42,495 bases of DNA. Origin: a virus. The DNA is taken from IMG/VR virus record IMGVR_UViG_3300045988_027069; one strand, given 5' to 3'. A program made the position numbers and the translations under genes. Below the pieces are notes generated by a model. The model was not told the DNA's origin, did no database searches, and worked only from the letters and a program-made list of their open reading frames with translations. Below, in pieces: positions 3,041 through 30,777 of the stretch (position 1 is its first letter; every line of letters starts with the position of its first letter).

Positions 3041-4081
3041 ATGAAAGTCCCCGAGCCTCGCAAACTGAAATCCGGCACATGGTTCATCCAGCTCCGCCTC
3101 GGCGGCGAGAGCATCCCCGTCTCTGCCCTCACGCGCTCCGACTGCATCAAGCAGGCGCAGCTCATCAAGGCCCAGCACCGCGCCGACCAGCGCGAAGTCA
3201 AATATAAGACGGACAAGACCGTCCGTGACATTATACAGGATTATATTGACGCACTGCCCGCCGGTACGTCTCCATCGACAGTGCGAGGCTACTTAAGCGT
3301 TGCTTCGACGCGATTCGCAACGGTCATGGATAAGGCCCCGTCGAGCGTGCGTGACTGGCAGTCCGTGATCGATGCCGAAGCAAAGTCTGTCTCTCCGAAA
3401 ACCGTAAAAAATGCGTGGGGCCTGCTTTCGTCTTCCCTGCGCAGCGCAGAGATCCCCGTCCCACGCATCCGCCTGCCGCAGCCTCACAAGGCGGAGAAGC
3501 TTTGGCTGGAGCCGGAGCAGCTTCCGGAATTCGTCCGACTCATTCACGGCGACCGTTTTGAAATTCCTATGCTTTTGGCTCTGCACGGCCTCCGGCGCTC
3601 CGAGATCCTCGCCATGACCTACGACAAGATCGACCTTAAACGCGGCACCATCACCGTCCACGGTGCGGCAGTCCTCGACCGTGACGGCGCAATGGTGCAA
3701 AAGGCCGAAAATAAGAATGCCAGCTCCCGCCGCGTTATCCCGATCATGATTCCAGCCCTTGCGGCAGCCATCGAAGCCGTGCCTCCTGAGCGGCGCACCG
3801 GCTTGATCTACGACGCCAATCCCACAACGTTGTATTGGCGCATCAATACCATCTGCAAAAACAACGGTCTCCCGGCGGTCGGCGTCCACGGCCTGCGTCA
3901 CAGCTTCGCGTCGCTGGCTTATCATCTTGGCTTGTCTGCGCAGGAAACAATGGAGCTTGGCGGCTGGGCCGACAGCGATACCATGCTCAAGATTTATACG
4001 CACCTCGCGCAGGCCGACCGACTCAAGAGTCAGAATAAAATCGCCGCCTTTTTTGCAGAAAATGCTAACCAAAATGCTTAA
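3041..4081 (+). CDS. int: Tyrosine recombinase / phage integrase
   Basis: 346 aa. Catalytic signature LALHGLRRSEIL ... HGLRHSFAS ... GWADSDTMLKIYTH (R..HxxR..Y). SD GGAGGTG. Adjacent to attP. Confidence 0.92.
   Translation: MKVPEPRKLKSGTWFIQLRLGGESIPVSALTRSDCIKQAQLIKAQHRADQREVKYKTDKTVRDIIQDYIDALPAGTSPSTVRGYLSVASTRFATVMDKAPSSVRDWQSVIDAEAKSVSPKTVKNAWGLLSSSLRSAEIPVPRIRLPQPHKAEKLWLEPEQLPEFVRLIHGDRFEIPMLLALHGLRRSEILAMTYDKIDLKRGTITVHGAAVLDRDGAMVQKAENKNASSRRVIPIMIPALAAAIEAVPPERRTGLIYDANPTTLYWRINTICKNNGLPAVGVHGLRHSFASLAYHLGLSAQETMELGGWADSDTMLKIYTHLAQADRLKSQNKIAAFFAENANQNA
4059..4081 (+). repeat. Two direct copies of AAAATGCT(A/T)A(C/A), candidate integrase arm-type sites (left arm)
   Basis: AAAATGCTAAC at 4059-4069 and AAAATGCTTAA at 4071-4081. 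The same 11-mer recurs twice at 4287-4310 on the other side of the core. Confidence 0.45.
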
Positions 4082-6016: not shown

Positions 6017-6274
6017 TTACTGCATAACTACTTTCTCAGCGTCATGCAGCACATTTCGGATGCTCTTTGAAAATGCAGGAAGTTTATTTTCGATATACTT
6101 CTTCTTAAAATTCATGATCGTTATCCCGGTCAATTCATCCGTGTCAATGTCTTTCAGATAGATCACATTCCCGTCGGAATCATCACCATAAGAATTACTG
6201 CGGTCACCGAGGGCAATGTACAGGACGTCGAATTTCTTGTCGTAGTCAAATACGATGCTATTCTTCTGCAACAT
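6017..6274 (-). CDS. DUF2283-like small protein (85 aa), putative antitoxin
   Basis: SD AAGGTGAGG lies 6 nt before ATG 6274. FDYDKKFDVLYIALGD...VIYLKDIDTDELTGITIMNF resembles DUF2283/YuzE proteins. Overlaps the upstream gene by 17 nt. Confidence 0.6.
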   Translation of the reverse strand: MLQKNSIVFDYDKKFDVLYIALGDRSNSYGDDSDGNVIYLKDIDTDELTGITIMNFKKKYIENKLPAFSKSIRNVLHDAEKVVMQ

Positions 6275-6617
6275 ATATCGCCTCACCTTCTCCACAGCCA
6301 CTTTTCTTGTTGTTATTAGGATATGCGGTTACAACTTCGCCTGATCCGCCGCAGACAGACACAACGACGTGCGTATATTTGAGTTTCGGGTAGTATGTAG
6401 CACTTTTCGATTCTTTTGTATATATCCGACGTTCATCTAGCGGAGGGTTCGTGTCATGACTTGGCAAAATTAGTTCCGGCTCCCGAATCGTCTCCACGAT
6501 TGCGTCTACGTTTGAAACCATGATGCTGTGGTTAAGCGCCACATGAGAATCCCACTGCTCTTTTGTGCAGAATACTTTTATCCCGCTTCTGTCAACAACT
6601 TCGAAAAAATTAGGCAT
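6258..6617 (-). CDS. Putative toxin (119 aa), DUF4258 / RelE-barnase-like pattern
   Basis: IKVFCTKEQWDSHVALNHSIM...VETIREPELI...THVVVSVCGGSGEVVTAYPN is a pattern I associate with DUF4258/PBECR-type nuclease toxins. The start overlaps the upstream stop (TGATG). Confidence 0.45.
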   Translation of the reverse strand: MPNFFEVVDRSGIKVFCTKEQWDSHVALNHSIMVSNVDAIVETIREPELILPSHDTNPPLDERRIYTKESKSATYYPKLKYTHVVVSVCGGSGEVVTAYPNNNKKSGCGEGEAIYVAEE

Positions 6618-6835
6618 CAATCCACCTGCTCACTCAGGATTTTGGACATCATTGCAGGGAGTGCCTCTGCTAACTGCTCATTCACAATCACTGCAGCTAC
6701 CGTTTCTTCCTGGTCGCTGTACACAACGCCATTCGCTCCAACTACTGGATATTTATGCTTAAATGTAAAAACAAACTCGTTCTTTGCCTCGTTCGCAGTA
6801 ACAGTCAGCGAATTTGCGTAAATAGGCTTGCACAT
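6617..6835 (-). CDS. DUF3467-like small protein (72 aa)
   Basis: PIYANSLTVTANEAKNEFVFTF...AVIVNEQLAEALPAMM resembles DUF3467. SD GAAGGAGA lies upstream of ATG 6835. Confidence 0.5.
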   Translation of the reverse strand: MCKPIYANSLTVTANEAKNEFVFTFKHKYPVVGANGVVYSDQEETVAAVIVNEQLAEALPAMMSKILSEQVD

Positions 6836-6868
6836 TGTAGTATAATCTCCTTCTCTGTTTTTTATTTC

Positions 6869-6897
6869 ATTATAGAACAAATTAAGCTCATTGTAAA
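6869..6897 (-). promoter_or_regulatory. Sigma-A-type promoter of the three-gene AT-rich operon
   Basis: Minus strand: TTTACA (6897..6892), 17 nt, TATAAT (6874..6869). Confidence 0.6.
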
Positions 6898-7174: not shown

Positions 7175-7870
7175 TTACTTGCTATCCAGCACGGCGATAT
7201 TGCCCTTATTGCTGACCTTCAGGCCCAGCGCGGCGGCGATATCGCGCACCTTGACATAGTTCGTGCCGTTTTTCAGGATGCGTTCGACGGCGACCTCCTT
7301 GCCGTCCACGATCATTTTCGACTTTTCTACCACTTCGTCCTCAAACCTTTCCAAGAATTTTTCCCACTGTTCGTTGCCAGTGGTGTGATAGTAGGTGTTC
7401 ATGTCCGTGCCGACGAACGGGCGCGGGCAAAATTTCCCGGACACATCGTAATGCCGGATGATGTGATCCGCCGGAATATTGTGCTCCTCCATGAGCTTGC
7501 GGATGAGCCACTCGGCATTATCGAGTACCTTTTTCTCGAAGAACCAGTCGGCATCGTAAGCGCCCATGCGCTTCGGATTGACCTTCTTCGGCCGCAGCTC
7601 CACGCCGATAGAGTTCCAGTTCCGGCACTCCGGATGCAGCGTACCGTCTCCGCAGTGCCACGCCACATCCGTATCCTTGACGCACCGGTAAATGATATCG
7701 CCCTCGTCCACGGCGTAGTGTGCGCTGGCTCTGGCCTGCGGATTTTTGAACCACGCGGCCACGCTGGCAGCAGAGCCGAGCGCGCCGAAGTAGTGCACGA
7801 CGATCCATTTCGGCGTGCAGCCGCCCGCTCGATGGTTGATCGGCGTGAGCGCATCTTTAATTACCGGCAT
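7175..7870 (-). CDS. Endolysin: N-acetylmuramoyl-L-alanine amidase (Amidase_2/PGRP type) with a C-terminal binding domain
   Basis: PKWIVVHYFG...SAHYAVDEGDIIYRCV...VAWHCG...NSIGVEL...IIRHYDVSGKFCP are amidase_2 signatures. SD GGAGG lies 8 nt before ATG 7870. Confidence 0.88.
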   Translation of the reverse strand: MPVIKDALTPINHRAGGCTPKWIVVHYFGALGSAASVAAWFKNPQARASAHYAVDEGDIIYRCVKDTDVAWHCGDGTLHPECRNWNSIGVELRPKKVNPKRMGAYDADWFFEKKVLDNAEWLIRKLMEEHNIPADHIIRHYDVSGKFCPRPFVGTDMNTYYHTTGNEQWEKFLERFEDEVVEKSKMIVDGKEVAVERILKNGTNYVKVRDIAAALGLKVSNKGNIAVLDSK

Positions 7871-8072
7871 TGTTCGCGCCTCCATCCACTGCGTCCTGCA
7901 CCTTCTGGCTCTGCGTTCCGAAGTAGAATGCGATCACGACGGCATACACCGTCATAAAGTCCTGGCTGATCTTGCCCACCACGGCCATGTACGCAAATAC
8001 CGCCGTCAGCGTCAGCGTCACAAGGCTTTTCACGCTCAGGAGATTCCCGAGCCGCTTGATGATCTTATCCAT
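7857..8072 (-). CDS. Putative holin (71 aa, 2 TM)
   Basis: MDKIIKRLGNLLSVKSLVTLTLTAVFAYMAVVG...VYAVVIAFYFG with a polar C-terminus. SD GGAGGT. Immediately upstream of the amidase. Confidence 0.7.
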   Translation of the reverse strand: MDKIIKRLGNLLSVKSLVTLTLTAVFAYMAVVGKISQDFMTVYAVVIAFYFGTQSQKVQDAVDGGANNAGN

Positions 8073-8325
8073 CGTATGTACCTCCATCATCTTTATCATT
8101 TGGTTTTGCAAATACTCTCTTGAGCAGGAGCAAAAGCAGCTCCCCGCCGAAGGCCGCGCCCGCGAATACCAGCACGTCGCTGAGATCGCACGTCCTGTCC
8201 AGCAGTACGGCAGCCGTTTTCAGAATCATCGCCCATGTGGCCACTGCCGTGAGCATCCACAGGCAGTAGTACACAAGCTCGCGGGCCATGCGGCCCTTTG
8301 TCCATCGTTTCTTGTCTCTGCGCAT
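8065..8325 (-). CDS. Small membrane protein (86 aa, 2 TM), holin-associated
   Basis: Basic N-terminus and two hydrophobic helices. Translationally coupled on both sides (TGATG overlap at 8325). Confidence 0.6.
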   Translation of the reverse strand: MRRDKKRWTKGRMARELVYYCLWMLTAVATWAMILKTAAVLLDRTCDLSDVLVFAGAAFGGELLLLLLKRVFAKPNDKDDGGTYDG

Positions 8326-8717
8326 CAGCCCAGCCCCAGTTTCGCCAGTGCAAAGCCGATCAGCCCTGCGAGGATTGCCGTGATAAGGCCCTTTACGACC
8401 GTCTCCCAGCGGCTTCCCGGCAGCGCCTTGAGGCTCTTTACGTCGTCCTTGATCTCAGTCACGTTCGCCTCGATCGTCTCCTGCTTCGTAGCAAGGACTT
8501 CGACCGAGGTCGCCAGCTGGTGCAGCGCCTTGTTGTCCGCCTCTAGCTCGTCGATTCTGTGCGTGTTGCTCTTGCATCGCGCCTCCACGGAGGCGATCTG
8601 CGCCTGAATTCCATCATCCATCTTGATACTCCTTTCAAAGCTTTCTATTTCGCACTCCGGGCAAACCATCCTGCCCTCCGGCACGGCCCGCCCGCAGCAT
8701 ACGCATGTATCCATCAT
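8325..8717 (-). CDS. XhlA-like lysis-associated protein with an N-terminal zinc ribbon (130 aa)
   Basis: CVCCG..x9..CPEC, then a coiled coil (ASVEARCKSNTHRIDELEADNKALHQL...) and a C-terminal TM segment LITAILAGLIGFALAKLG. This is the XhlA architecture, positioned upstream of the holin and amidase. Confidence 0.6.
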   Translation of the reverse strand: MMDTCVCCGRAVPEGRMVCPECEIESFERSIKMDDGIQAQIASVEARCKSNTHRIDELEADNKALHQLATSVEVLATKQETIEANVTEIKDDVKSLKALPGSRWETVVKGLITAILAGLIGFALAKLGLG

Positions 8718-8861
8718 TCAATCTTCTCGTCTTTGGTTGATTATATCAACGGTTGTGTTCTGGGTTATCCGCCGTGCCGACATTGGCCTCCTGCTCTACA
8801 TAAACCTTTCGAACTACAACATCAATAATTACAACTTATCAATTGCCCATGGCGGTTGCTC

Positions 8862-9137
8862 TTATTTTGCCAGATTATCCATGATGGACATAGCATCAAG
8901 ATAGCTGACCTCACCGTCGCCGTTAACGTCCGCACGCTTCAGTGCGTCCTCGTCCAGTGGCGCTGTACCTGCCAGATGATCCATGATAGCCGTGGCATCA
9001 TTCTTGTCCACCTGGCCGTCCCCGTTCACGTCCCCAACTGCAAGGGGATATTCCACGACCAGCGTACTGACCAACTCAGCGGGAATCTCTAGCTTTAACT
9101 TAATACCATTCTTCAGTTCCATATTTAATTTGTACAT
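8862..9137 (-). CDS. Stand-alone dockerin-domain protein (91 aa)
   Basis: Two dockerin type-I Ca-binding repeats: GDVNGDGQVDKNDATAIMDHL and ADVNGDGEVSYLDAMSIMDNL. SD AAGGAGA lies 5 nt before ATG 9137. Confidence 0.8.
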   Translation of the reverse strand: MYKLNMELKNGIKLKLEIPAELVSTLVVEYPLAVGDVNGDGQVDKNDATAIMDHLAGTAPLDEDALKRADVNGDGEVSYLDAMSIMDNLAK

Positions 9138-9156
9138 AATAATCTCCTTTCAAAAA

Positions 9157-9780
9157 TCATGCTGTAGTAGTGGTCAGCGACAGCTCTCCTGCCGTGATTA
9201 TGATAGGCGCGTTAATCGCACCGCTAAGGTAATCCATGATGTTTAACTTCGCAGTCTCTACTTTCAGTACAGCAGCACCGGCAGAATCTGTGGCGATCTC
9301 GGAACGGAAAAATACAGTAACTGCGTAGGTCCCAGACCCTTGCATAGATGGAGGCTCCTCAAAACCTACACACTGATATGTCTTGTGGTCATAGATCAGT
9401 AAGGCGTTGCCATAGTCAACAAGCGCAATGGCCGTCACCATAGATACCTCTTGTGTGCAGGCCGCGTCGGTATATGCCTTGATATTGCCGTCAGCGTCCG
9501 CCTTACCATAGATCTTCTTACCCGGCAGAGCGGCGATTTGGGTTCTCCAAGTATCCATCGCGCTGGTAGGGATATTGCTCCCGTCCGCTTTGGCCAGCAC
9601 CGCCGTTTCCCACGCTGTAGGCTTACCGTTTTCATCTATGGTATTGATGATGGGGGACTGCCCCGTGCTAGCGCCAGTGATACCGAGCGATTCATCCGTC
9701 CCGCCGCCGGGTACGTCCACCTTCAATGTTTTCCCGCCATATACCAGCGGCTTCCCGTCCATGTAAAGCTGTTTTTCCAT
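9157..9780 (-). CDS. Tail-fibre-module hypothetical protein (207 aa)
   Basis: Good SD (GAGGTGAGGA). Lies between the fibre and dockerin genes. No recognisable motif. Confidence 0.7.
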   Translation of the reverse strand: MEKQLYMDGKPLVYGGKTLKVDVPGGGTDESLGITGASTGQSPIINTIDENGKPTAWETAVLAKADGSNIPTSAMDTWRTQIAALPGKKIYGKADADGNIKAYTDAACTQEVSMVTAIALVDYGNALLIYDHKTYQCVGFEEPPSMQGSGTYAVTVFFRSEIATDSAGAAVLKVETAKLNIMDYLSGAINAPIIITAGELSLTTTTA

Positions 9781-9791
9781 GTATCCTCACC

Positions 9792-11714
9792 TCACGTTGC
9801 GCTTCCATATACGCTGTCGTTGCCATCGGTCACACGCACGGTCTCGATCTGGCGCAGTCCGCAGACGGAGATGATCTGCCGGATCTTGTCGATCATGGAT
9901 TCCGCCACGCATTTGTGCGCATCGCCGGTAATATGCACGCCGTCGCGGAAGAATTTGCTGCGCACATCGGTATCGTCGTAATTGAGGAACCACTTGTCGA
10001 ACAGATCCAGCACCCAGCAGCGCGTATGCATCTGGCAGAGAATTTTCAGCGCGATCAGATAATCCACCATCTTGACCGTACTGGTTTTCCATTTCTGATT
10101 TTTGAACGGCAGCAGCCACAGGATCTGCGCGCTGGGGAACGTCTCCTCCAGCAGCGCCAGCGTCTTTTCGACCGCGCCGTAGAAATTCGTATCCTCCGTC
10201 AGATCGGTCGCAGCGCCCAGCGCCGCCTGCTCCCAATGATCGTTTGTCCCCAGCTCGACGACCGCAATATCGACCGCATCCGCCCACATTTTGAGAGACA
10301 GATTCGTCTTGTACTCCGCTAGCTTCTGCGCCAGCCCGGAGTAGCCCGACATCGCCGCGTCATAGGACTCGTCGGTGTTCTGCTTCCCGTTCCAGTCAAA
10401 GCTGCCGCTGCCCGTCGTCACCGACGCGCCGCTCTGGCACAGCGCCATGGACTGCGCCCGCAGGTTCATCGGCACATATTTGCGGAATGCGTTCTGCAAT
10501 CCAGCGTTGGATGCCGCGTAGGTGATGGAGTCGCCTATAAAATGGATGTTCAGCGTTCTGTCGCGCGGAACGTCTCTGGACATGGCCGCATACGCGCGTT
10601 CATTTTCTGCGTTTGCCGTTTTGGATACAAAAATCTGCTGCAAATAACCTTCGTCTCTTGCGAAGCCGTTCCCAAGGTCTTTCTTGAAAACATACCAGCT
10701 CTGTCCATGCATCCCATTCCCGAGATCACTCATTCCCGCCTGAACTTCTGCCACGAAGCAATTGTTGATGCGTTTACCGGCATCCGGCTTTACGCTTGCC
10801 CGGAGCAGATACCAGTCCTGTTTTACCGTGAAATACGCAGGGAGCGGACCCAGCGTCTGTCCGGAGATCGCAGGCTCGATGTAGCCCTTGGTGACCATGG
10901 TTTTCATGATCGTGTTAATGATGCCCGCCGCAACTCTCCCGTTCTCCAAAGCCTCTGCTGCGTCCGGCAGTGACGGGTAGGCATGATACCAGCCGAAAGT
11001 TGCAATATCCGACGGGTCTGTCACAAATTCATTCGTATTCACCGGATACGGAAGCTGCGTGAGGCAGTAGGTTTTTCCAGCCTCGAACTTGACCGAGTAG
11101 ATCGCGCAGTTTGCGTTTTCTGCCTTGACTCCGCCGGTTGTGCCGTACCCGTCCAAAAACAGTGTCCATGGGATATCCCTGCATTCCGTGCTGTAGCCCG
11201 CCAGTTTCTGTGCGGAAACGCTGCCGTCCTGTACGGTCGTCGTCGCCTCCGGATGCTCCGTCAGCCAAGTCGATACTGCCGAGGACACCTGCGCGTCCGT
11301 GGGGCCGGAAATGGGATCGCCGAGCGTTGCTTCTACGCCGCCCGCGATCACATCTGCCGCGATTTCCTCCTTGTCCGCATCCGTCAGCACATAATCGTCA
11401 CCGGCAGGCCCCTGCGGTCCAGTCGCACCCTGCGGGCCAGTCGCACCCTGTGGGCCGGTCGCACCCTGTGGGCCAGTCGCACCCTGCGGGCCAGTCGCGC
11501 CCTGCGGTCCGGTTGCACCTTTATCACCCTTCTCGCCGGTCGCACCCCGCGACGGCTTCCCGGTGTCCTCGTCCCCGAGATACCAATTGCCGTTTTCGCC
11601 GATCGTCGGCGTAATGCCGTCCTTGCCGTCTTTCCCAGTGCCGCCCGAGCCTCCCGCTGGAATCTTGTATACATCCTCCAGCCCGGGGAATTTAATGCTT
11701 TTCAGTTCCTTCAC
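9792..11714 (-). CDS. Tail fibre/spike protein: collagen-like Gly-X-Y region plus an SGNH/GDSL hydrolase domain
   Basis: (GATGPQ)x6 within an approximately 90-aa G-X-Y run. SGNH blocks IHFIGDSITYA, ELGTNDHW and FRDGVHITGDAH. GTG start overlaps the upstream stop (GTGA). Confidence 0.8.
   Translation of the reverse strand: MKELKSIKFPGLEDVYKIPAGGSGGTGKDGKDGITPTIGENGNWYLGDEDTGKPSRGATGEKGDKGATGPQGATGPQGATGPQGATGPQGATGPQGATGPQGPAGDDYVLTDADKEEIAADVIAGGVEATLGDPISGPTDAQVSSAVSTWLTEHPEATTTVQDGSVSAQKLAGYSTECRDIPWTLFLDGYGTTGGVKAENANCAIYSVKFEAGKTYCLTQLPYPVNTNEFVTDPSDIATFGWYHAYPSLPDAAEALENGRVAAGIINTIMKTMVTKGYIEPAISGQTLGPLPAYFTVKQDWYLLRASVKPDAGKRINNCFVAEVQAGMSDLGNGMHGQSWYVFKKDLGNGFARDEGYLQQIFVSKTANAENERAYAAMSRDVPRDRTLNIHFIGDSITYAASNAGLQNAFRKYVPMNLRAQSMALCQSGASVTTGSGSFDWNGKQNTDESYDAAMSGYSGLAQKLAEYKTNLSLKMWADAVDIAVVELGTNDHWEQAALGAATDLTEDTNFYGAVEKTLALLEETFPSAQILWLLPFKNQKWKTSTVKMVDYLIALKILCQMHTRCWVLDLFDKWFLNYDDTDVRSKFFRDGVHITGDAHKCVAESMIDKIRQIISVCGLRQIETVRVTDGNDSVYGSAT
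11411..11518 (-). repeat. 18-bp tandem repeat x6 encoding GATGPQ
   Basis: cctgcggtccagtcgcac and near-identical units are read directly. They are in frame within the fibre CDS. Confidence 0.9.
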
Positions 11715-13091: not shown

Positions 13092-13448
13092 TTACTCCAC
13101 GCGCGCCACGTTCCCGCTCGCAAGCGTGGTCCGGTTGCCGTGCGTGTACAAAATGTCATACCGGTAGACGCCGCGCGGGAACTTGGCCGTCACCTCGTCC
13201 GTGAACGCCAGCGTGACCGTGTTCTCGTCCGCGCCCGTGAAGGAGAACTCCTGCACGGCCTTCTTCGTCCAGTCGTAGAACGTCACCTTGATCGTGTCCG
13301 TCTGCCCGATGGTCACGTCCGCGCCGTCCTGGTCCTCCAGCTCCATCCGGAGCCGGAGGGAGAACGTGTCTCCCTCATACCAGCAAATGCACCCGTTCGC
13401 AATGCGCGGGCTGACCCGCGCGCCGGGGATCGTGTTTGCCGCGCTCAT
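13092..13448 (-). CDS. Hypothetical structural protein (118 aa)
   Basis: ATG 13448 overlaps the stop of the giant gene (ATGA). The remainder of track ORF 13092..14516 is an out-of-frame shadow. Confidence 0.7.
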   Translation of the reverse strand: MSAANTIPGARVSPRIANGCICWYEGDTFSLRLRMELEDQDGADVTIGQTDTIKVTFYDWTKKAVQEFSFTGADENTVTLAFTDEVTAKFPRGVYRYDILYTHGNRTTLASGNVARVE

Positions 13449-16400
13449 TTCTTGTCTCCTTTCCTTTTGTTGGCCTCCTGCCGCCACTTGATGATGTTGT
13501 CCCGCGCCTTGTCTGCGTCGCCTCCAATAGCCTTGTACGCGCTGATGTAGGCATTCTTGAGCCGTGTCGCCTCGTCTCCGGTCGCTGCCAGCCAAGCTTC
13601 CTTGAAGTGCGTCGTGAGCTGTGAGGACAGGTCGCCCTTGTCCACGCCGTGCTTCATATACTCCCTGGCGACCTTCCGCGTATCGGCCAGCACGCCCTTG
13701 TCCACTGCGTCGAGGAACTTCCCGTACTTCTTCCAGCCCTCGCCGCCCTTCCACTCTTCGAGCGTCCAGTAAACGTCGTGCTCGTCCTCCGCCCCGCAGT
13801 ACTCTTTCAGGAACGCGGCGGCGGTTTCCTCGTCTGCCAGCCCGTCTTGGAAATCCTGCTTCATCTGGCTCCGGAGGCTGCTGTTTACCGAGCTTTCCGC
13901 CTGCGCCTTTGTTTTTCCTCCGGCCATTTCTGCCGCAATGGCGTCCGCGCGAAGTGTCTCGTATTCCGACACGCCCTCTGTCGCTGCCTGATAAAGCTCC
14001 GTATGCCCTCCGCCCTCCATGATGATCTGGGCAAATTTGAACGCATCCAGAACACCGCGCTTCTGCGCGGCGCTGTAGCCCTGCTGATTTGCCCACTGCC
14101 GGAAGGCGTCCGCCTTTTCCGATGCCTTCATGCTTTCGTCTGCGTCTATCTGAAGCTTTTTCTGCGAAGCCTTGAGGTATTCGTCCATCCCGAGCACGCC
14201 GTTTTCTCCGGTCAGTGCGTCTATGCGTTCGCGCTCCTTGTCTCCGGCCATCATGAGGTAGTAGTACGCGCCCTGACCGGCCGTGGATACCTTGGAGGAA
14301 AGCAGCATATTCAGTTTGTCCAGCTTCGAATCCTCGCCGTCTCCGAGCTTGGAGATCCTGCGGATAAGCCTGTAGCTCTCCTCCTTGTCCGCGCCTGCCG
14401 CGATCATGGCTTGATATGCGGTCGTCTGCTTTTCTCCGATGGCCCGCTCTTCTCCGGCGTAATAGCGCCCGGTCTCGCTCAGACCGTTCGGGCCGAATAC
14501 GACCGCCTGTATCCACTTTCCGATGTTCTTATTGTCTACCGGATAACGAAGCTTCGTCTGCTCTCCGTAGCCCTGATACACGCCGCCTCGAAGCATCGCG
14601 TCGATACCCCGCGCTGTTTTCTTGATCTGGCTGCCGCCGGGTATCATTTCAGTCCCGACGTCGAACGTCGCCTTTGCGATGTCCTGCGCGCTTTTGCCGC
14701 CCTTGACGGCATTGATCCACTTGTCGAGTGCTTTCGTCGGGATCGCCGCCGGAAGGGAATTGTCGCCCCAGCCGATCAGCGCGGAAGCATTCTGCAAATA
14801 GGGGATATCGTTTGCGATATCGCCGCCTGCGGCCTCCAGCGCTTTCCACCCGTCAAAGCTGCGCTCTTCGTTTTCTGTCCCGAAGAGCCGTTCGCCCGTG
14901 AGCTTTTCCCATCCGTCGTCCATGACCGTCCGCAGCGCGTCGTTGACTGGCAGGCCGTACCCGCTCGCAACGAAATTCGACGTGATCCCCAGCACATCGA
15001 ACTGCGCCGGTGTTCCTCCGTATGTCTCATCCGAGAGCCTGTTCATAATAAACGCCGCGATCAGATATTTGACAATGACGCCCGCGAGCGCCTTGATCGC
15101 CTTGTCCTTGCCGTACTTCTTCGCCATCATCCGGAAGTCGAAGCCCGCCGTGTCCTGTGTCAGGTGCTCCCACGAGTTGGCAACTTCAAGCTGGAAGGTG
15201 TTCACAAGCTGCATGACCGGACTTTTGGAGTTGAACGCGACCGGCTTTGCGCCCTTCGAGCGGTCGCCCATGACCGCCGCGCCGTATTTGTCGGCGTAGC
15301 GCATGGCCTGCTCGTGCGTCATGCCCTTCTGGATGCCCTCCAGATAGGCCGCCCGCACTGCGATCGTCGATACCATGGCGTCCGCGAACTCCTGGGCCTG
15401 TCCCACCTTGTCGAGCGCCCACTCGTACATATTCTTTTCATCCGTGACAAGAAAGTGTACGCCCTTCTTGCTGGTCAGATAGTCGCTTTCCATTGCGAAG
15501 TCCGCCTTGCGGAGCTGTCCGGTCACCATGTCCTTGACGGCTGCCGCCGTGTTCCGGACGCCCTTTTCCGCGACAATGACCGGCAGCTGCGCCGTCTGGT
15601 TGAGGATCGTTGCAATGTTTCCCGCGACCTTCGCCGCTCCGAACCCTCGTGTGAGCCGGTTTCCGAAATTCAGGGCCTTTCGCCCGAAGTCTGCTTCCGT
15701 GGAGCGGTCTCCCATGGTCTGCTTCCCAGCGAGAATATTTGCGTAGTTGTCCAGCCACACGACAAGGTTAGAGTAAGTGCTTTTGTTTTTTGCGTCCTCG
15801 TACAGCTTGTCCAGCTCCGCTTCGATCATCGTGTCCAGCTCCGCCTGATCTGCGATTGTCCCGTGCGGAAGCTTTCCTTCCTGCTGCAAATAAAGAAGCT
15901 GTTCGTCCGGAAGCTTTTCCCGCAGCCATGTATACCGGTCAATGTCGAAGCTGATATCTTCCGACGAATACCGGCGGCGCAGGTAGTCGCTCAGCGCGCG
16001 CACCGTCATGATATCGTCCGTGTGATAGAACACCTCGGACATATACGCAACGTAGCTTTCAAAGCCCTTGGCTGCGTCAAAGTTGTATGTCTCGCTTGTT
16101 CTGTGCAGGAAATACGGATTCCAGCGCTTGTTTGGCTTGAAGTTCGCGGTCAATCCGGCAATGCTGGTAGGCAGCGTCACCGTATCCTCGTTGAGGCCCA
16201 GCGCTTTCAGTGCCGAGTCGAGCGCGCCACGGCTCTCTTCCGACTGCATATGCGGCGCGTAGTTTTGAATGAATCCGATCGGCTCGTATCCGTGCGCCAC
16301 GAGGAAGTCGTTAATTGCCGCGTAAAATTCGTTGTATTTCTGCGTGTATGCCTTTGCGGCGTTGTCGATCTTCACCGCGTCGATCTTGCCGTCTGCCATC

Positions 16401-19400
16401 ATGCGCAGCGCCCCGACCCACGAGGCATACATCTTCGCAAGCTGCTTTTCGTTCTTGTTGAGGTGCTCGCTCTTCGCCGCCTCGCTGGCCTTCATACCAT
16501 CCGCAATCTTCAAGCCTGCCTTGGTGATCTGTGGATTTCCCGGCATATCCCCGAGCAGTGCCTCCGTTGCCTTGCCCTCCATCACGAGCTGTACAAGAAT
16601 GCTCTCCTCATGTGTCAGCTCCGACTTCCTGCCCGTTGAATCCGCGAATTCTCGCACATCGTCAAACTGCCGGTTGATAAACCGTATCCTCTCAGATTCG
16701 TTCCCCTTGATCGGGTCGAAGATCGCCTTGTTGATCTTCTCGCCGGTCTCGTCTCCGAAGATTTTCAGCATGTTCCGCTGCGCTGTCCGGTGGTTGAGCG
16801 TGAACATATCCTGCACTTTATTGTCCTTGACGTCCTTGAACAGCGTCTCCAGCACTGCCGTCGTGTCCTGCCGGATGGATTTCCGCTGCGCTGCAAGCCG
16901 ATCCTCTCCCAGCGCCGCTTCGGCGTTCATGTAATCCACCAGACTGAGCACGACGCGCTTGCTGAACCCTTGCGGGATGTCCTGCATATCAAACACGCCG
17001 TCCGCGATCTGCCTTGCAAACGCGACTTCCTTTGCGGTAGCGCCCAGCCGGTCTATCGCGCGGTTGACCTCCTTTTTGGCCTGCTTGAACGCCTTGTCCA
17101 TCTCAATGAGCGTCTGCGTTTTCCCGTATCTGCCTACGGAGCGTTCGACCTTCACGCCCATTTTTTCGAGCGCGCCCGTACTCTTGAAGTCATTCCGGCT
17201 GCTTTCCTGCCAAGCCTGACCCTTTGCCTCTGCGCTCATGGCTTGAATTCTTGCCGGGATGCTTCCCTCGGCAAGCTTTCTCCGCATCATCCAGAATGTC
17301 GCCTCGTCAAGCCGCTGTCCCTCCGGCACAGTCTCGGCATAATACTTGTATACATCCTGCATGAACTTCGTGTTCTGGACAGTCTCCGCCCGGTACGTTC
17401 CGTCTGCATTTGGGAATTGCAGCGTCAGCGTCTTTGTGGATCGATCCGGCTTTGTCACGAAATCCAGCAGCGCCTTGGTGTACGCCTTTCCGTTTCCGGC
17501 CCAGTCCGCAGCGCGTGCGCCCTGCGTCACGATGCCGACCCTTACGCCCGGCGGCGTAATGCCCATCAGCCGGTAAAACGGATTTGGATCACTGCTGTAC
17601 GCCCAGTCTGCCTTTGCGTCAAAATTGAAGATCGGCACGCCCGCCGCCGCTTTCTTCGCCGCATCCTCCGTCGCCGTGCCTGCCTCTGCATCCGTCTCCG
17701 TATCAGCAGGGGAGTAGCGCTGTTTCTGCTGCGCCTCTTCATATGCCTTTGCGAATGTGGTTTTCCCGTCGGCTGCCCCCGATGTGTAGCTTGACGCTCC
17801 CGATTTTTCCCACTTGACACCTGCTATAAAGTTGCGTATATTGGTAGTGAAGTCACCGCCTTGTATGGCTGCCAGCGAATTGGCCGCTGGTACCCCAGCA
17901 AGCGCGGCTTGGCTTCTTTTTTTATCCAGATACAGAAGCCGCCCGTCCGATGCTGCTGCCTCAAGGTCACTGATCAGAGCTGCACGGTCATAGCTGGTGA
18001 TTACCTTGTTCGCGTCGATGCGCTTCCCATTCAGTGTGCCCTTTGTGTTAAGCGTCTCAATGACGACAATCGGGCCGCCTTTCCCAGCCTCTCCAGTGAC
18101 CAGAACGATATTGCTGGCACGTTTCCCGTTTGCCCCGGCGGTGTCGGCAAATGCGGCAACGGGGTTTTCCGATGCGTTCAGCACCCGCTGCAGGCCATCT
18201 GCGCCGAGTCCGTGGTAGTTGACGTTCTGCCTGTACCGGCCATCTTTCTTTGCCTGTGCCTCGGTCGCCATCGCAGAATATGCCTTGTTCGCTGGCATTG
18301 TGACGTGCAGTGCATCTGCGCCGATCACATCCGTCAGAAAGTTCGACGTCTCCCCGATGTAGACTTCCCCGCTTTCCGCCTTGTATGTCCCGTCGAACAC
18401 CTTCCGTAGATCTTCGCCCAGTCTGTCGCTTATAGAATATCTCTGATTCTTCGTCGGCTTCTCTGCATCCGGTTCCGCTATGCTTTCTCCCAAAATTGCC
18501 CGCACCGTCTCTGTGAACTTTGTCGCGTCCGCATCCGTATACCGGAGCATTCTTCCGGCGGCGTCTGCAAGGACTTCCTCCGTAGCGATGTTGAAAAGCG
18601 CTTCCTCGCTCATGCCCTCATAGACGCCGCGCATCCGCTTGACGTACTGCCCGGCAATCGCCATCAGCTCCGATTCGCTGAAACGGTCAGCCACCGCCTG
18701 CGCAGCTGCGTTCCTCTGCTCCGTACTCAGATCATGGAAAAGCGCATGATCGATCAGATTTTCCATCGCCCACTTTGTGCAGTCCGCGCGCACAGTGATC
18801 TGCCGCGTTCCGGTGTCTATGAACTCATCCACCGCCGTTCCGTTCGCAAGCCGAATTCTTCCCATGACGATATTGAGCGACGCTCCACGGGCCTCCACGG
18901 CCTTCTGGAGCGCTTTTTCATGCTCCCCATACGCTTCCACCGGGATTTTCAGCAGCGACTTTGTGGTGTCTCCGCCTTTCAGCCCCGCTTCTGCCGGGCT
19001 GATGTTTTCTGCGCCAAGATCCCGCGCACGATTGCGGAGGCGAACTGTCTCTCCTTGTCGCTCAAGGGTGCGTTCGATTTCTGAGCCTGCGCCCATGCGT
19101 CTACTCTGTCCTCCGGAATATACGCTTTCTGTCCGTCCTTCGCCGTTACGGCGACTAGCTTCCTGCTGTCCATACTGTTCCGTACCCCTTTCTGTATCCT
19201 CCTGAATTACCGTCTGCGCAGCTTTCTGCTGCGGCATTGCCGCCTCCTGTGCTGCCTGCATGGTTCCCTGCTGCTGGGCTTCTCTCGCTGCCTGCCGCGC
19301 ATCCCGTTCGTCCGCATACTGGTTGTACGTCTGAAAAGCCGCCTCTTCCTGCGCGGCCTGATCTGCCTTTGCCGCCGCGTCAATGACCGCCTGCACCTCT

Positions 19401-21325
19401 GCCGTATCCGGCATCTGACCGGCATTGACCTTCTCCATGACCGCCTGTGCGGCCTCTGCGGTCGCCTGATCCCCGCGCTCCTTTGCCATCGACTCAACGG
19501 CGTCCATGACCTGTCCGATCACGTTCAGCTGTTCGCCCTTGTTGTATGCCTCTGTGAGCTTGTTCGTCCCCGCATACGCGCCGGACATGGCAAGACCGGA
19601 GATACCGCCCGCTAGGAACGAAAGCCCGTCCTCTTTCAGCATATCGGCCAGCGTCAGCGCAAGCGCCTTTTCCTTCGTATTGCCCTTCGAAAGATACTCC
19701 GCATACGCGCCCATGACCTCGCCCCGGTCGTGCTTTGCCGCAACGTCGTAGATGCGGTTGAGCCAGTTGGACGCGATCTCTTCCGCGCCCTCGGACGCGA
19801 AGGCACGCAGCGCTTTTTTCCACACCTGTTTTCCGCTGAGCATGGTCTCAATGATGTCGCCCACGGAGTATTTCTCCGTGAATCCCTCGATAGCGCCCTC
19901 TACGATGCCGTCAATAAGCGCCTCCTGATTGGACTTGCCGCGCTGAATGCCCTCATAGACGGAATCTGCTGCGACCTGCGACCCCATCACCCAGTTCATC
20001 GTCTCTGCCACCGCCGAGGACGCCGCTTCTCCGCTGAGTCCTGTCGTTCCGACGAGCGCTGTCGAGACGGCCATGTTGACCGCGCTGTCCAGCGCGGATG
20101 TTCCTGCCTGATACAAAAACTGTCCGACCGGCCCCATGCCCTCCATGACGCCGCTGCGGATACCGCTCGAGACGTGCGTCGCTGCGTACATTGGGCTGTA
20201 GATGTTCGTCGGCATATCTGCGTTCTGATATCCGCCGAGTCCCTTCGGCAGAATGCCGCGAAGCGATTCGATGTTTCCAAGCGCCTTGAACGGCGCCATC
20301 ATCGACGACGTTACCGTCGAGAAAACAGGCGCATCCTGTCCGAACTGCTGCGCACCCGACATGCGCATCTGATAGTCCTCGAAATCCTCTAAGTACTTTT
20401 CGTATTCTGCCAGCCGTCCGATCTGATCCTCAGAATACCCCTTCTGCTGGAGCCTGTGCTTCGCGTCCGTTTTTTTCAGAAGATTCGTCCCGTTGATGTC
20501 TTTCAGCAGATTTCGCGTCTCTGTATCCAGCGTGCCGACGGCGTTCTCCGCCTGTCCAAGCGCTCGTGTGGAATCCAGCGCCGCTTTTTGGGTCTCCAGC
20601 GTGTCGATCTCGCTCTGTATGTCCATGACCCCTCGAGCCTGCCTGCGCGTCCCGTTTTCATCGGTGTACCAAGCCGTCCCGTTCTCGTCAAACTGATAGT
20701 CTCGGAAATGCTCGTCGGATTTCTGCTCATATAGCTGATCCAGTTGCTTCTGCATTTCTGCCGAAGTCCGCTTCATGCCGCGCAGTTGATCCGGAAGGAC
20801 CGTCTCCCTGTATCGCTTTTCCTGCTCCGCAGCCCGTCTTTCCAGCTCTCCGTCGAACTGATTCAGGCCGATCAGGCGGCTGTAGTCCTGCCCGGCATTC
20901 GTCGCCGCCTTCTGGGCCGCCGTGCCGGTCTGCACCTTGCGCTGCTGCTGACGTTCCTTTTCCTGCAATGTCCGCCGGTACCCGCTCATCTGGTCGTGGT
21001 TGATGGAGCCAATGATCTGGTTCTGCCGCTCCTGCATCGTCCTGAGGTACCCGCTCAGCTGGTCATGGTTGATCGAATCCGCGATCTGCTTGTACTGCTG
21101 ATACGCCGCCTCATAGCTCTGCGGCGTCGCTTTCTTGGTGCTCGTCCGGTAATCCGGATTATACGGGCCGTTCTTGACGTTCTGCCCGCCGCCGTTGCGC
21201 AGATAATCGTCAAGCAGTGCCTGACCGTTTGTGTTTCCGCTGCTGGACTGTCTCGAAATGCCGTATCCTGTCTCCTGCTTATACTGATCGAGAAGGTCCC
21301 GCCCTGTTTGTTTCTTCTTCGCCAT
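13445..21325 (-). CDS. Giant multidomain virion protein (2,626 aa): tape-measure/ejection-protein-like with polyvalent-protein-like architecture
   Basis: Single uninterrupted ORF with SD GAGGA. Q/Y/R-rich coiled N-terminus with an internal repeat SINHDQ(L/M)SGY.RT.QE, Gly-rich hydrophobic segments and several globular-looking blocks. Confidence 0.8.
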   Translation of the reverse strand: MAKKKQTGRDLLDQYKQETGYGISRQSSSGNTNGQALLDDYLRNGGGQNVKNGPYNPDYRTSTKKATPQSYEAAYQQYKQIADSINHDQLSGYLRTMQERQNQIIGSINHDQMSGYRRTLQEKERQQQRKVQTGTAAQKAATNAGQDYSRLIGLNQFDGELERRAAEQEKRYRETVLPDQLRGMKRTSAEMQKQLDQLYEQKSDEHFRDYQFDENGTAWYTDENGTRRQARGVMDIQSEIDTLETQKAALDSTRALGQAENAVGTLDTETRNLLKDINGTNLLKKTDAKHRLQQKGYSEDQIGRLAEYEKYLEDFEDYQMRMSGAQQFGQDAPVFSTVTSSMMAPFKALGNIESLRGILPKGLGGYQNADMPTNIYSPMYAATHVSSGIRSGVMEGMGPVGQFLYQAGTSALDSAVNMAVSTALVGTTGLSGEAASSAVAETMNWVMGSQVAADSVYEGIQRGKSNQEALIDGIVEGAIEGFTEKYSVGDIIETMLSGKQVWKKALRAFASEGAEEIASNWLNRIYDVAAKHDRGEVMGAYAEYLSKGNTKEKALALTLADMLKEDGLSFLAGGISGLAMSGAYAGTNKLTEAYNKGEQLNVIGQVMDAVESMAKERGDQATAEAAQAVMEKVNAGQMPDTAEVQAVIDAAAKADQAAQEEAAFQTYNQYADERDARQAAREAQQQGTMQAAQEAAMPQQKAAQTVIQEDTERGTEQYGQQEASRRNGEGRTESVYSGGQSRRMGAGSEIERTLERQGETVRLRNRARDLGAENISPAEAGLKGGDTTKSLLKIPVEAYGEHEKALQKAVEARGASLNIVMGRIRLANGTAVDEFIDTGTRQITVRADCTKWAMENLIDHALFHDLSTEQRNAAAQAVADRFSESELMAIAGQYVKRMRGVYEGMSEEALFNIATEEVLADAAGRMLRYTDADATKFTETVRAILGESIAEPDAEKPTKNQRYSISDRLGEDLRKVFDGTYKAESGEVYIGETSNFLTDVIGADALHVTMPANKAYSAMATEAQAKKDGRYRQNVNYHGLGADGLQRVLNASENPVAAFADTAGANGKRASNIVLVTGEAGKGGPIVVIETLNTKGTLNGKRIDANKVITSYDRAALISDLEAAASDGRLLYLDKKRSQAALAGVPAANSLAAIQGGDFTTNIRNFIAGVKWEKSGASSYTSGAADGKTTFAKAYEEAQQKQRYSPADTETDAEAGTATEDAAKKAAAGVPIFNFDAKADWAYSSDPNPFYRLMGITPPGVRVGIVTQGARAADWAGNGKAYTKALLDFVTKPDRSTKTLTLQFPNADGTYRAETVQNTKFMQDVYKYYAETVPEGQRLDEATFWMMRRKLAEGSIPARIQAMSAEAKGQAWQESSRNDFKSTGALEKMGVKVERSVGRYGKTQTLIEMDKAFKQAKKEVNRAIDRLGATAKEVAFARQIADGVFDMQDIPQGFSKRVVLSLVDYMNAEAALGEDRLAAQRKSIRQDTTAVLETLFKDVKDNKVQDMFTLNHRTAQRNMLKIFGDETGEKINKAIFDPIKGNESERIRFINRQFDDVREFADSTGRKSELTHEESILVQLVMEGKATEALLGDMPGNPQITKAGLKIADGMKASEAAKSEHLNKNEKQLAKMYASWVGALRMMADGKIDAVKIDNAAKAYTQKYNEFYAAINDFLVAHGYEPIGFIQNYAPHMQSEESRGALDSALKALGLNEDTVTLPTSIAGLTANFKPNKRWNPYFLHRTSETYNFDAAKGFESYVAYMSEVFYHTDDIMTVRALSDYLRRRYSSEDISFDIDRYTWLREKLPDEQLLYLQQEGKLPHGTIADQAELDTMIEAELDKLYEDAKNKSTYSNLVVWLDNYANILAGKQTMGDRSTEADFGRKALNFGNRLTRGFGAAKVAGNIATILNQTAQLPVIVAEKGVRNTAAAVKDMVTGQLRKADFAMESDYLTSKKGVHFLVTDEKNMYEWALDKVGQAQEFADAMVSTIAVRAAYLEGIQKGMTHEQAMRYADKYGAAVMGDRSKGAKPVAFNSKSPVMQLVNTFQLEVANSWEHLTQDTAGFDFRMMAKKYGKDKAIKALAGVIVKYLIAAFIMNRLSDETYGGTPAQFDVLGITSNFVASGYGLPVNDALRTVMDDGWEKLTGERLFGTENEERSFDGWKALEAAGGDIANDIPYLQNASALIGWGDNSLPAAIPTKALDKWINAVKGGKSAQDIAKATFDVGTEMIPGGSQIKKTARGIDAMLRGGVYQGYGEQTKLRYPVDNKNIGKWIQAVVFGPNGLSETGRYYAGEERAIGEKQTTAYQAMIAAGADKEESYRLIRRISKLGDGEDSKLDKLNMLLSSKVSTAGQGAYYYLMMAGDKERERIDALTGENGVLGMDEYLKASQKKLQIDADESMKASEKADAFRQWANQQGYSAAQKRGVLDAFKFAQIIMEGGGHTELYQAATEGVSEYETLRADAIAAEMAGGKTKAQAESSVNSSLRSQMKQDFQDGLADEETAAAFLKEYCGAEDEHDVYWTLEEWKGGEGWKKYGKFLDAVDKGVLADTRKVAREYMKHGVDKGDLSSQLTTHFKEAWLAATGDEATRLKNAYISAYKAIGGDADKARDNIIKWRQEANKRKGDKK

Positions 21326-28807: not shown

Positions 28808-30565
28808 TCAGGCGTCGCTTCCGGTTTCCAGAACGCGTCCGATGCTGTAGAGCTTAAACGGCCCTGTGCCGGTGATCTTGAATCGCAGATGGTCGCATCG
28901 CTGCGGGCGGATCGGCAGCAGGAACGTCCGCAGTCCGTGTCCGTCCATGTGTCCGGCGTGCCGGAACTCCCCGCAGGAGTCGTACTCGATCCAGAAGTCG
29001 CACGCGCTTCCGATCGGCAGCTGCATCCGCAGATTCAGCCGTGAGATGTATTTCTTCCCGACGAGGCCGCACGTCATGATCCCGGTCGTCGCCGACCACT
29101 GGATCTCCGGCTCGACATTTCCGCCGCCGGAGCCGTAGGCCGTGATAAGCATCCCGTTTACGTGGAGCATATAAAGCTCATCGTCGAGCGCGGCGAACTG
29201 CGTCACATGTAGTCCGTCCTCCCGGTGCCAAAGCCCCTTGAGCGTGTCATATACGAAAAGCTGCCATGCATCTTTGCTGTCCTGCATTGAGATGAAATAC
29301 TTCCCGCGCACGCCTCCGGCAGCCGCCTTGCGGTAAAGCTCCGGCCCGAAGGCGTCCGAGATCAGATAGGGGAGAGAGCCGTCATAGACGCACACGCCGT
29401 CCCGCGCCTTGTAATAGAGCTTATCGGCGATAACGGTCAGGCTCTGTTCGCTTCCGCGCTGCACGCCTCGGGCCTTGATCTCCTTTACCTGATGCGCGCC
29501 CTGCGCGCTCGGATAAATGCGGTGAAAGCAGTCCTCCTTGAAGAAGATCGGACTGTCTGCCAGCGTCGCGGCTCCTGTGAAGCGTCCGTCCGTGCCGCAG
29601 CTTGCGCGCCATGAGTCGGTCGAAATGCCCTGATAGCACTCCCAGTTCTTGAAATCGCCCAGCTTGCAGCAGTACAGCTCGTTGACGGTTTTCCCGTCGG
29701 ATACGCCGTACCGGCAGCCCCAGAGCCGGTTACCGCTCTCGGTGATGTAGTCCATCTTCGGCACACGCCGGGCGGCCTTGACCTCGCCGGTGCTCTGGCT
29801 CGCGTCCGCGTCCACGATCCCGACGATCACAAGGTAGTTGTCGCCGACGTCCTGCAAAACGTGGGAGCCGTTGAGCTTTTCGACCTGATTCGTCCCGTCG
29901 AGGCCGCTGATCTGCACGCCGTCATACTTCTTGAAGCCCGCTCCGATGCCGTTTGCCTCCAGCTTGACGTATACCGTCGGGATGCTCACCCACTGGCTCT
30001 GGACGGAGCTCCACTGTTTCAGCTCATGCTTTCCCGTGTCCAGCCAGTAGGCGTCGTTCGCGGCGTCCTCCGGCATCGCCTGCTGCCGGTATGTGATCGT
30101 GATAACGGCTCCGTCCACGGTGCAGACCTTGATGGAAAGCGCCGTCTGCGTGCAATCCACAAGGTTTTCATGGCCCATGTAGCCGTTGTCCGTGTAGTCC
30201 TCGGTGTTGAAATACCATCCGTCCGGGAAAACGCAGATGTACGCGCCCATGGATACCATCTGTTTTTCTCCCTCGGAGAGCAGCACCCCGCCCATGTAGG
30301 GGGACATGGACAGTGCGTTGTACCACAGCACGCCGTCCTCGATCCATGCCAGCGCGTCCTTTGCCAGCAGCCCCTGAATGCCGGAGAAATCGCCGACCAT
30401 TGCGCGGGCCGCGCGCTGAGACAGCAGGGGATAGTAATCCGAGGTGAGATTCTGCATCTCGTAGAATTCGCCGTCGGCAATGCGCAGGTTGTGGTTGTAG
30501 CCCGCGAAGGTCTCTGTCACCATCTGTTCCTGCGCAGGCGCGCTCAGTTCGGGGTATCGCATCAT
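28808..30565 (-). CDS. Large structural-module protein (585 aa) between TerL and portal, possibly beta-propeller-like
   Basis: SD GGAGGAAAG before ATGATG at 30565/30562. Repetitive YxxxDG / LYxxxxDG strands. No named family. Confidence 0.7.
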   Translation of the reverse strand: MMRYPELSAPAQEQMVTETFAGYNHNLRIADGEFYEMQNLTSDYYPLLSQRAARAMVGDFSGIQGLLAKDALAWIEDGVLWYNALSMSPYMGGVLLSEGEKQMVSMGAYICVFPDGWYFNTEDYTDNGYMGHENLVDCTQTALSIKVCTVDGAVITITYRQQAMPEDAANDAYWLDTGKHELKQWSSVQSQWVSIPTVYVKLEANGIGAGFKKYDGVQISGLDGTNQVEKLNGSHVLQDVGDNYLVIVGIVDADASQSTGEVKAARRVPKMDYITESGNRLWGCRYGVSDGKTVNELYCCKLGDFKNWECYQGISTDSWRASCGTDGRFTGAATLADSPIFFKEDCFHRIYPSAQGAHQVKEIKARGVQRGSEQSLTVIADKLYYKARDGVCVYDGSLPYLISDAFGPELYRKAAAGGVRGKYFISMQDSKDAWQLFVYDTLKGLWHREDGLHVTQFAALDDELYMLHVNGMLITAYGSGGGNVEPEIQWSATTGIMTCGLVGKKYISRLNLRMQLPIGSACDFWIEYDSCGEFRHAGHMDGHGLRTFLLPIRPQRCDHLRFKITGTGPFKLYSIGRVLETGSDA

Positions 30566-30777
30566 CTTTCCTCCATCATGTTCAGCGGATCGATCCACTG
30601 CGGCTTTTCCGGCACGGCCAGCATCGGCTTCACCGGCCTCGACATGCAGAAATACCGCCATTCGTCCGCGCAGTTGTGGGAGATCACGCCGCCTTGTATT
30701 ACAAAATCGTGCGTTTCCTCCACTTCCATGTTGTATACATCTGCGCATCCTGCACGCCTAACCGATTTGACCTTCAT
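30562..30777 (-). CDS. terL: Split-intein C-fragment (35 aa) fused to the TerL C-extein (36 aa)
   Basis: SD GGAGGAGGA lies 6 nt before ATG 30777. MKVKSVRRAGCADVYNMEVEETHDFVIQGGVISHN carries intein blocks F/G, then CADEWRYFCMSRP... carries the conserved TerL nuclease motif. Confidence 0.75.
   Translation of the reverse strand: MKVKSVRRAGCADVYNMEVEETHDFVIQGGVISHNCADEWRYFCMSRPVKPMLAVPEKPQWIDPLNMMEER

Follow-up and report, generated by a model that had tools for sequence, protein, structure and literature searches.

A stand-alone dockerin protein paired with the fibre-tip gene of uncultured gut phages: a candidate clip-on adhesin

Why a bacteriophage should encode a dockerin on its own, next to its tail fibre genes, is the question raised by the DNA considered here, IMG/VR virus record IMGVR_UViG_3300045988_027069 (42,495 nucleotides; "the window" below means this whole stretch). 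Few protein-protein interactions are as tight and as specific as those of cohesins with dockerins, which have so far been linked with the building of extracellular enzyme complexes. An earlier note, made from the letters alone, had read a 91-aa open reading frame of the window as a free-standing dockerin lying between the fibre genes and the lysis cassette, and had offered three roles for it: a fibre-associated adaptor that docks virions onto host cohesins, a decoy that occupies those cohesins, or a tether for lysin or progeny. The coordinates of the features discussed are collected in Table 1.

Table 1. Features of the dockerin locus and its surroundings. Positions are those of the window unless another contig is named.
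Feature	Position	Strand	Basis or remark
91-aa hairpin-dockerin gene	8862..9137 (including stop codon)	-	ORF list, ATG start, Pfam, homologues, AF2
N-terminal beta-hairpin and linker, residues 1-33	9039..9137	-	AF2 secondary structure, conserved pattern
Dockerin module, residues 35-89	8871..9035	-	Pfam, PDB profile matches, Foldseek, calcium ligands
Shine-Dalgarno AAGGAG	9144..9149	-	read from sequence; 6 nt 5' of ATG
207-aa partner, proposed fibre-tip/receptor-binding protein	9157..9780	-	109 homologous clusters
Minimal horizontally exchanged block: dockerin gene and C-terminal part of 207-aa gene	~8857..9690	-	blastn, four other backbones
640-aa fibre: collagen-like repeats, C-terminal SGNH/GDSL hydrolase	9792..11714	-	Pfam Collagen, Lipase_GDSL_2; PHROG tail fibre
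Lysis cassette	7175..8717	-	Pfam and PHROG matches
XhlA-like	8325-8717	-	lysis cassette
86-aa ORF	8065-8325	-	lysis cassette
Holin-like ORF	7857-8111	-	lysis cassette
Amidase_2 endolysin	7175-7885	-	lysis cassette
Amidase_3-Dockerin_1 endolysins of other contigs	L086 9428-10180, L095 1010-1753, L090 3944-4675, L096 4481-5197

The two ends of the window overlap by 99 bases (1-99 equal 42397-42495), which shows that the assembly, of about 42.4 kb, is closed into a circle and is a complete phage genome. The phage is temperate, with an integrase at 3041-4081, and its structural genes include a P22-like portal, a capsid protein and a large terminase. Two regions away from the dockerin gene may be recorded in passing. 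On the minus strand at 28808-32792, the large terminase ORF (31230-32792) carries Terminase_6N and a weak intein-splicing match, and next come an ORF for an HNH_3 endonuclease (30758-31270) and one of 646 aa (28808-30748) that has no annotation; an intein or a homing endonuclease could thus interrupt the packaging genes. The lysis genes are separated from the integrase side by an island of lower GC content (6017-6880, minus strand, 0.43 vs about 0.57), whose ORFs at 6017-6301, 6258-6620 and 6617-6880 are small and overlap; the island may represent a moron or an insert of the toxin-antitoxin kind.

The 91-aa protein is a hairpin segment followed by a complete dockerin, and nothing more. Residues 35-89 match Dockerin_1 (PF00404) with an E value of 4e-13 and 49.8 bits, where the Pfam gathering score is 22.9 bits, and cover positions 2-56 of the 57 in the profile, a result that bears out the dockerin reading of the earlier note. 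The two canonical calcium-binding repeats claimed there are both present (residues 36-57 and 70-91); each spans about 22 residues and follows the pattern of a D-x-N/D-x-D...D loop, with the last aspartate at position 12, and then a helix. Their calcium ligands (D36, D40 and D47 in the first repeat; D70, D74 and D81 in the second) are 98-100% conserved in the 97 family members. Structure prediction for the protein alone, with a 30-sequence alignment as the AF2 input, gave a model of mean pLDDT 92.4 with strands at residues 2-7 and 13-18 and helices at 45-56, 63-69 and 79-90, and AF2 and Foldseek agree on the three-helix dockerin fold. All 22 of the best Foldseek matches in the PDB are dockerins from cohesin-dockerin complexes, 20 of them with a TM score on the target of 0.56-0.89 and the remaining two (0.38-0.42) belonging to the longer double-dockerin chain 8x39; the rmsd is mostly 1.1-1.7 Å and reaches 3.9 Å. 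When the family profile was compared with PDB sequences, the first matches were likewise the double dockerin 8x39 of C. thermocellum, ScaB of A. cellulolyticus (4uyq) and Xyn10B (1ohz). Neither Pfam nor AF2 revealed a second domain, catalytic or other, just as the earlier note had held, and no PHROG family matched the protein. An EF-hand identity was considered and ruled out: EF-hand_1 alone passes its cut-off, and barely so (27.1 vs 25.4 bits), no EF-hand model comes near the score of Dockerin_1, and the significant fold matches are all dockerins.

The gene lies close behind its upstream neighbour. Its start lies 19 nt beyond the stop codon of the 207-aa gene, and the strong Shine-Dalgarno sequence that had been noted stands 6 nt before the ATG. 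Promoter- and terminator-like sites were found neither 5' of the dockerin gene nor in the flanking intergenic gaps on the minus strand; the sole minus-strand regulatory match nearby is a promoter-like stretch inside the coding sequence (9010-8983), and a moron with its own promoter or terminator was rejected for this gene. No hydrophobic signal peptide was found in the first 33 residues (N-terminus MYKLNMELKNGIKLKLEIPAELV), so the protein cannot reach the cell surface as cellulosomal dockerin proteins do.

The 97 clusters of full-length homologues (89-101 aa) all derive from assembled gut metagenomes, and none has a name; the identical 91-aa protein occurs in 102 indexed blocks of the assembly collection, so the ORF is not a chance one. 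Conservation runs over the whole 91-aa length, the hairpin included, which follows the pattern M-x-K-I/L..NG..L/I...P..L in the family alignment. In a search of the representative library with the family profile, multi-dockerin proteins dominated; among the best 150 matches, five 50%-identity representatives have the full-length hairpin-dockerin architecture and none fuses it to another domain. The cassette was found on a single contig in IMG/VR (L082, which is the same as L129) and is common in assemblies of the human and pig gut. No close relative of the 91-aa protein was found in GTDB species genomes, where the best match, from a Ruminococcus MAG, reaches 54% identity and covers the dockerin only. 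One relative of irregular build, the 104-aa protein P0098 from one Logan (lgn) contig of 7124 bp, is a chimera of an N-terminal Amidase_2 fragment and the last 28 residues of the dockerin (ALKRADVNGDGEVSYLDAMSIMDNLAK); it may have arisen either by a deletion that fused lysin and dockerin or as an assembly artefact.

With type I dockerins of cellulosomes (C. thermocellum Xyn10B, 1ohz/2ccl; A. cellulolyticus ScaB, 4uyp), the protein shares the Pfam family, the duplicated repeat and the three-helix fold. Unlike them, it has no signal peptide, enzyme or scaffoldin, sits in a phage late operon, and carries the 33-aa hairpin segment where a cargo domain would be. Furthermore, positions 10 and 11 of its repeats are variable in the first repeat and a fixed Y-L in the second, which again sets it apart from the cellulosomal dockerins. 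Because it lacks a signal peptide, a cargo domain and a cohesin in cis, it is not a usual component of a cellulosome.

What the dockerin gene is reliably found with is the gene of the 207-aa protein. The earlier note had placed the gene correctly between fibre genes and lysis cassette; upstream are the 207-aa and 640-aa fibre genes and downstream the XhlA-like, holin-like and Amidase_2 genes, yet the two sides do not hold equally well across relatives. In every contig read, the identical 91-aa protein is preceded by a protein of 206 or 207 aa, and in more distant dockerin members (L120, L002 and L082) the preceding protein has 324-382 aa and a C-terminus with homology to the 207-aa protein. 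A gap of 19-20 nt separates the two genes in the window, in L082 and in L120-L133. Approached from the other side, three members of the 207-aa family chosen blind to the presence of a dockerin (P0196, P0249 and P0185) were all followed, 19-20 nt later, by a Dockerin_1 gene of 91-101 aa. The identical dockerin with its 206/207-aa partner recurs in at least three different tail architectures, namely the window type with its MuF_C giant protein (L125 and L126), a tape-measure type (L123 and L128) and an SPbeta-like type with YomW, YomU and YomN families (L124); a further copy, L127, is an integrated prophage between host ddl and feoAB, with a tail module that resembles the tape-measure type. Ahead of the same cassette in other backbones, the 640-aa fibre is replaced by proteins of 810, 916 or 578 aa. 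In L124, L130 and L132 the cassette lies within the tail module, far from any lysis gene, so the position in the window beside the XhlA, holin and amidase genes is incidental. The constant neighbour of the dockerin gene is thus the 207-aa protein, not the lysis cassette.

Two proteins of these tail modules deserve a brief description. The 640-aa fibre of the window contains seven copies of GATGPQ and may be a receptor-modifying esterase. The giant 2626-aa ORF (13445-21325, minus strand) has a single Pfam match, MuF_C at residues 1033-1139, and its counterpart in the related phage L132 is a 2981-aa version with an added ART-PolyVal domain; the protein may be an internal virion protein that is ejected.

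The loss of lysis adjacency bears directly on those readings in which the dockerin is non-structural and released at lysis, as a cohesin decoy or exclusion factor or as a tether for the endolysin or for progeny virions. They could draw on the window itself, where the XhlA-like, holin-like and amidase genes follow directly on the dockerin gene, and on the dockerins carried by endolysins of other phages. However, adjacency to the lysis genes is not conserved, so the decoy and lysin-tether roles that the earlier note had listed lose support, and the adaptor role is the one of its three that best fits the context, with its constant pairing, its co-movement with the fibre-tip gene and its missing signal peptide. 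Nor does Pfam find a cohesin in the endolysin of the window to which a dockerin could be tethered, and the block exchanged between phages ends at the dockerin stop codon and leaves the lysis genes outside. We regard a lysis-time role as very unlikely.

That exchanged block is visible in nucleotide comparisons with four other backbones. By blastn, window positions 8857-9645 are shared with L130 at 87%, 8844-9690 with L132 at 86%, 8857-9681 with L082 at 85% and 8863-9675 with L120 at 76%, so the dockerin gene has moved together with the part of the 207-aa gene that encodes the C-terminus. The 207-aa family comprises 109 clusters, in which the last ~175 aa are conserved and the N-terminal part differs (collagen, Mtd_N and others), a layout that is usual for modular receptor-binding proteins. 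The AF2 model of the 207-aa protein has a pLDDT of 83.9, with residues 88-201 above 90, and this confident C-terminal domain has a mixed alpha/beta fold for which Foldseek found no significant PDB match and, among the weak matches, no cohesin. Receptor-binding tips and their accessory proteins travel as cassettes in other phages, as with gp37/gp38 of T2 and with the distal fibre C-terminus plus gp38 or Tfa in T-even phages, lambda, Mu and P2. By analogy with these, the co-transferred block would be the signature of a horizontally exchanged host-range cassette consisting of a receptor-binding tip and its accessory protein, and it is probable that the 91-aa protein is a fibre-tip accessory of some kind.

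The residues through which dockerins recognize cohesins are distributed unevenly in the 97 members. In repeat 1 the canonical recognition positions 10 and 11 (K45 and N46) are hypervariable, with 9-11 residue types, and in repeat 2 they are Y79-L80, conserved at 92-93% within an S/T-Y-L-D-A-M motif. From this asymmetry we infer one dominant binding face, on helix 3; it could mean that binding occurs in one mode, or that one face is under diversifying selection. By mean pairwise distance the dockerin (0.20) is the most conserved of the three parts compared, followed by the hairpin (0.29) and the fibre tip (0.42). In a Mantel/mirror-tree test on members with the type-A hairpin, hairpin, dockerin and fibre tip all co-diverge (r 0.60-0.65, p about 2e-4), and the test does not separate hairpin from dockerin in their coupling to the fibre tip.

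A second hairpin type is more telling. In P0080, P0091, P0095, P0505 and P0522 the hairpin (type B, beginning MEIKIQ...) is recognisably related and strongly diverged, and in the loci with a complete upstream gene the protein encoded there is one of ~193 aa that is not homologous to the 207-aa family. P0080 combines this type-B hairpin with a dockerin identical to that of the window, which indicates a modular design of clip plus payload. Hairpins that differ according to the upstream protein, joined to a dockerin that may remain the same, are what would be expected of a tip-specific clip with an independent payload. It may be added that the ~193-aa upstream protein has an internal Dockerin_1 of its own (L001 9405-9986 and L117 672-1256; also L118), so the fibre locus of type-B phages encodes two dockerin proteins in tandem, and that L002 has a further Dockerin_1 protein of 145 aa two genes downstream (10883-11320).

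A model of how the protein may act is proposed on this basis. The 91-aa protein would be made late, in the cytoplasm, and its N-terminal hairpin would clip it to the 207-aa fibre-tip protein, at the C-terminal domain of the latter. The calcium-loaded dockerin would then be displayed on the fibre tip of the virion, probably in several copies per fibre, where its partner would be a module of cohesin or cohesin-like type on a surface protein of the host; this cohesin-type contact would contribute to adsorption and host range. For this reading as a whole, a fibre-tip dockerin held by its hairpin that binds a surface cohesin of the host and aids adsorption, we put the probability at roughly one half (0.5). 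Presence in the virion, binding of hairpin to fibre and the nature of the host partner are its conditional parts, deduced as they are from gene context, sequence and predicted structure.

The same gene order can be read in another way, which the earlier note had not considered. A small gene directly 3' of the fibre-tip gene that is co-transferred with its C-terminal part is the hallmark of fibre/chaperone pairs, such as stf-tfa of lambda, S-U of Mu and gp37-gp38 of T4, and the 91-aa protein might accordingly be a tail fibre assembly chaperone, similar to Tfa or T4 gp38, that serves folding or trimerisation of the 207-aa C-terminal domain, with the dockerin as a calcium-stabilised scaffold and no adhesin function. 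The likeness to gp38 of T2, T6 and S16 and to Tfa of lambda, Mu and P2 is real as to position immediately behind the distal fibre gene and exchange with the fibre C-terminus, and extends to the proposed division into an N-terminal fibre-binding and a C-terminal host-facing part. However, the 91-aa protein has no Pfam or PHROG similarity to the Tfa or gp38 families, it has a dockerin as payload where those proteins have a glycine-rich or a Tfa fold, and its attachment to the fibre is, unlike theirs, a deduction. Moreover, conservation is higher in the dockerin than in the hairpin or in the fibre tip, and the same dockerin recurs unaltered where hairpin and upstream protein are both different, which suggests a separate partner for the dockerin. 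Nor does a chaperone role apply to the dockerins found on Dit proteins and endolysins of phages. We therefore consider a chaperone unlikely, although it is the strongest of the alternatives to a fibre-tip dockerin that binds a host cohesin.

Those other phage dockerins are of interest in themselves. Dockerin matches were present on 34 IMG/VR contigs. In four of them (L086, L090, L095 and L096), Amidase_3 endolysins without a signal peptide carry a C-terminal Dockerin_1 (Table 1), and in L104 (7517-8158) a distal tail protein (Dit, PHROG 33) does the same; L101 encodes a 257-aa protein with an N-terminal dockerin and no PHROG match, which we take to be fibre-like from a sequence motif in its C-terminal part alone. 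The C-terminus of an endolysin is the normal site of wall-binding domains, and "evolved" Dits carry carbohydrate-binding modules in the position that the dockerin has in the Dit of L104. That Dockerin_1 holds the very positions of these decoration and wall-binding modules points, by analogy, to a surface-targeting role for phage dockerins, with the difference that the dockerin of the window is a separate polypeptide and those of the Dit and the endolysins are fused domains. Viral dockerin folds are already in databases: a few proteins in BFVD, from uncultured phages of the gut, have been given the automatic name "Dockerin type 1", such as A0A8S5M688 of Myoviridae sp. ctCL221. These share the fold and differ in their size (211-400 aa), in lacking the hairpin architecture and in having nothing but the automatic name; the literature search turned up no work on their function.

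A second alternative keeps the 91-aa protein at the fibre tip and changes its ligand: the dockerin might bind a cell-wall glycan or a surface protein other than a cohesin, or only sense calcium. Its case begins with the host. The ddl protein in the flank of the L127 prophage is identical to NCBI entries labelled "[Firmicutes bacterium]" and "[Oscillospiraceae bacterium]" (CDB87496.1 / MBS1408808.1), and its closest named relative, at 80%, is from Ca. Avoscillospira; the host of L127 is thus likely an uncultured member of the Oscillospiraceae, and from the shared cassette we infer the same host for the phage of the window. To our knowledge, this Oscillospiraceae/Ca. Avoscillospira clade is not one known for cellulosomes. 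Consistent with a ligand of another kind, dockerins are also abundant in genomes not known for cohesins, among them many Bacteroidales MAGs, and the Cohesin models of Pfam had no match in the 28 window proteins scanned, mainly structural and lysis proteins. Against it, all structurally characterised close matches of the protein are dockerins that bind cohesins, and the conservation of Y79 and L80 at 92-93% is what would be expected of a protein-protein interface. A ligand other than a cohesin is, in our view, quite unlikely.

The host was also sought through cultured phages. A megablast search with the fibre-lysis region gave no match, and the tblastn matches of the portal and of the dockerin protein were limited to unannotated "Bacteriophage sp." records from human faeces.

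The last alternative, that the dockerin docks onto a cohesin-like module encoded by the phage and serves virion assembly rather than host binding, could appeal to divergent cohesins that the Pfam models miss and to several unannotated structural proteins of the window, but the sole phage protein that stays constant across backbones is the 207-aa partner, whose fold has neither a cohesin nor any PDB match, and sequence searches of the PDB found no cohesin similarity in the 207-, 259- and 640-aa fibre proteins, so that we hold it to be the least probable of all. A phage-encoded cohesin was accordingly rejected on the Pfam scan of 28 proteins, the AF2/Foldseek analysis of the 207-aa protein and the three PDB sequence searches, with the proviso that divergent cohesins may escape these methods.

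As far as the literature could be searched in full text, no work on phage dockerins in either adsorption or lysis was found, nor any description of dockerin-targeted endolysins, and a stand-alone, unsecreted dockerin that acts as a clip-on module of phage fibres is to that extent undescribed. The nearest paper notes that a contig of a putative ANME virus has dockerin domains, for which it suggests a part in adhesion (ISME J 2026; PMC13452462).

In sum, a complete dockerin without a signal peptide is paired with, and exchanged together with, the fibre-tip gene of gut phages, and its display on the fibre tip by way of the hairpin, as a ligand for host cohesins, is the reading that we prefer. A wider proposal, which we advance tentatively and think possible though somewhat doubtful, is that phages of gut Clostridia have co-opted the cohesin-dockerin interaction for host targeting in several ways, with dockerins on fibre tips and Dit proteins that meet surface cohesins as receptors, dockerins on endolysins that direct these to the wall, and the hairpin-dockerin protein as a portable clip-on adhesin. 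If the preferred reading is true, dockerin-mediated attachment, which the literature that we could find does not describe for phages, would add a new class to the interactions of phages with protein receptors, in gut Firmicutes that are abundant and uncultured. Cohesin-bearing surface proteins would then be under phage selection, and host range would become predictable by matching the dockerins of phages to the cohesins of hosts. Finally, the natural combination of a 33-aa clip and a dockerin could be adopted as a template for attaching cargo to the fibres of phages.
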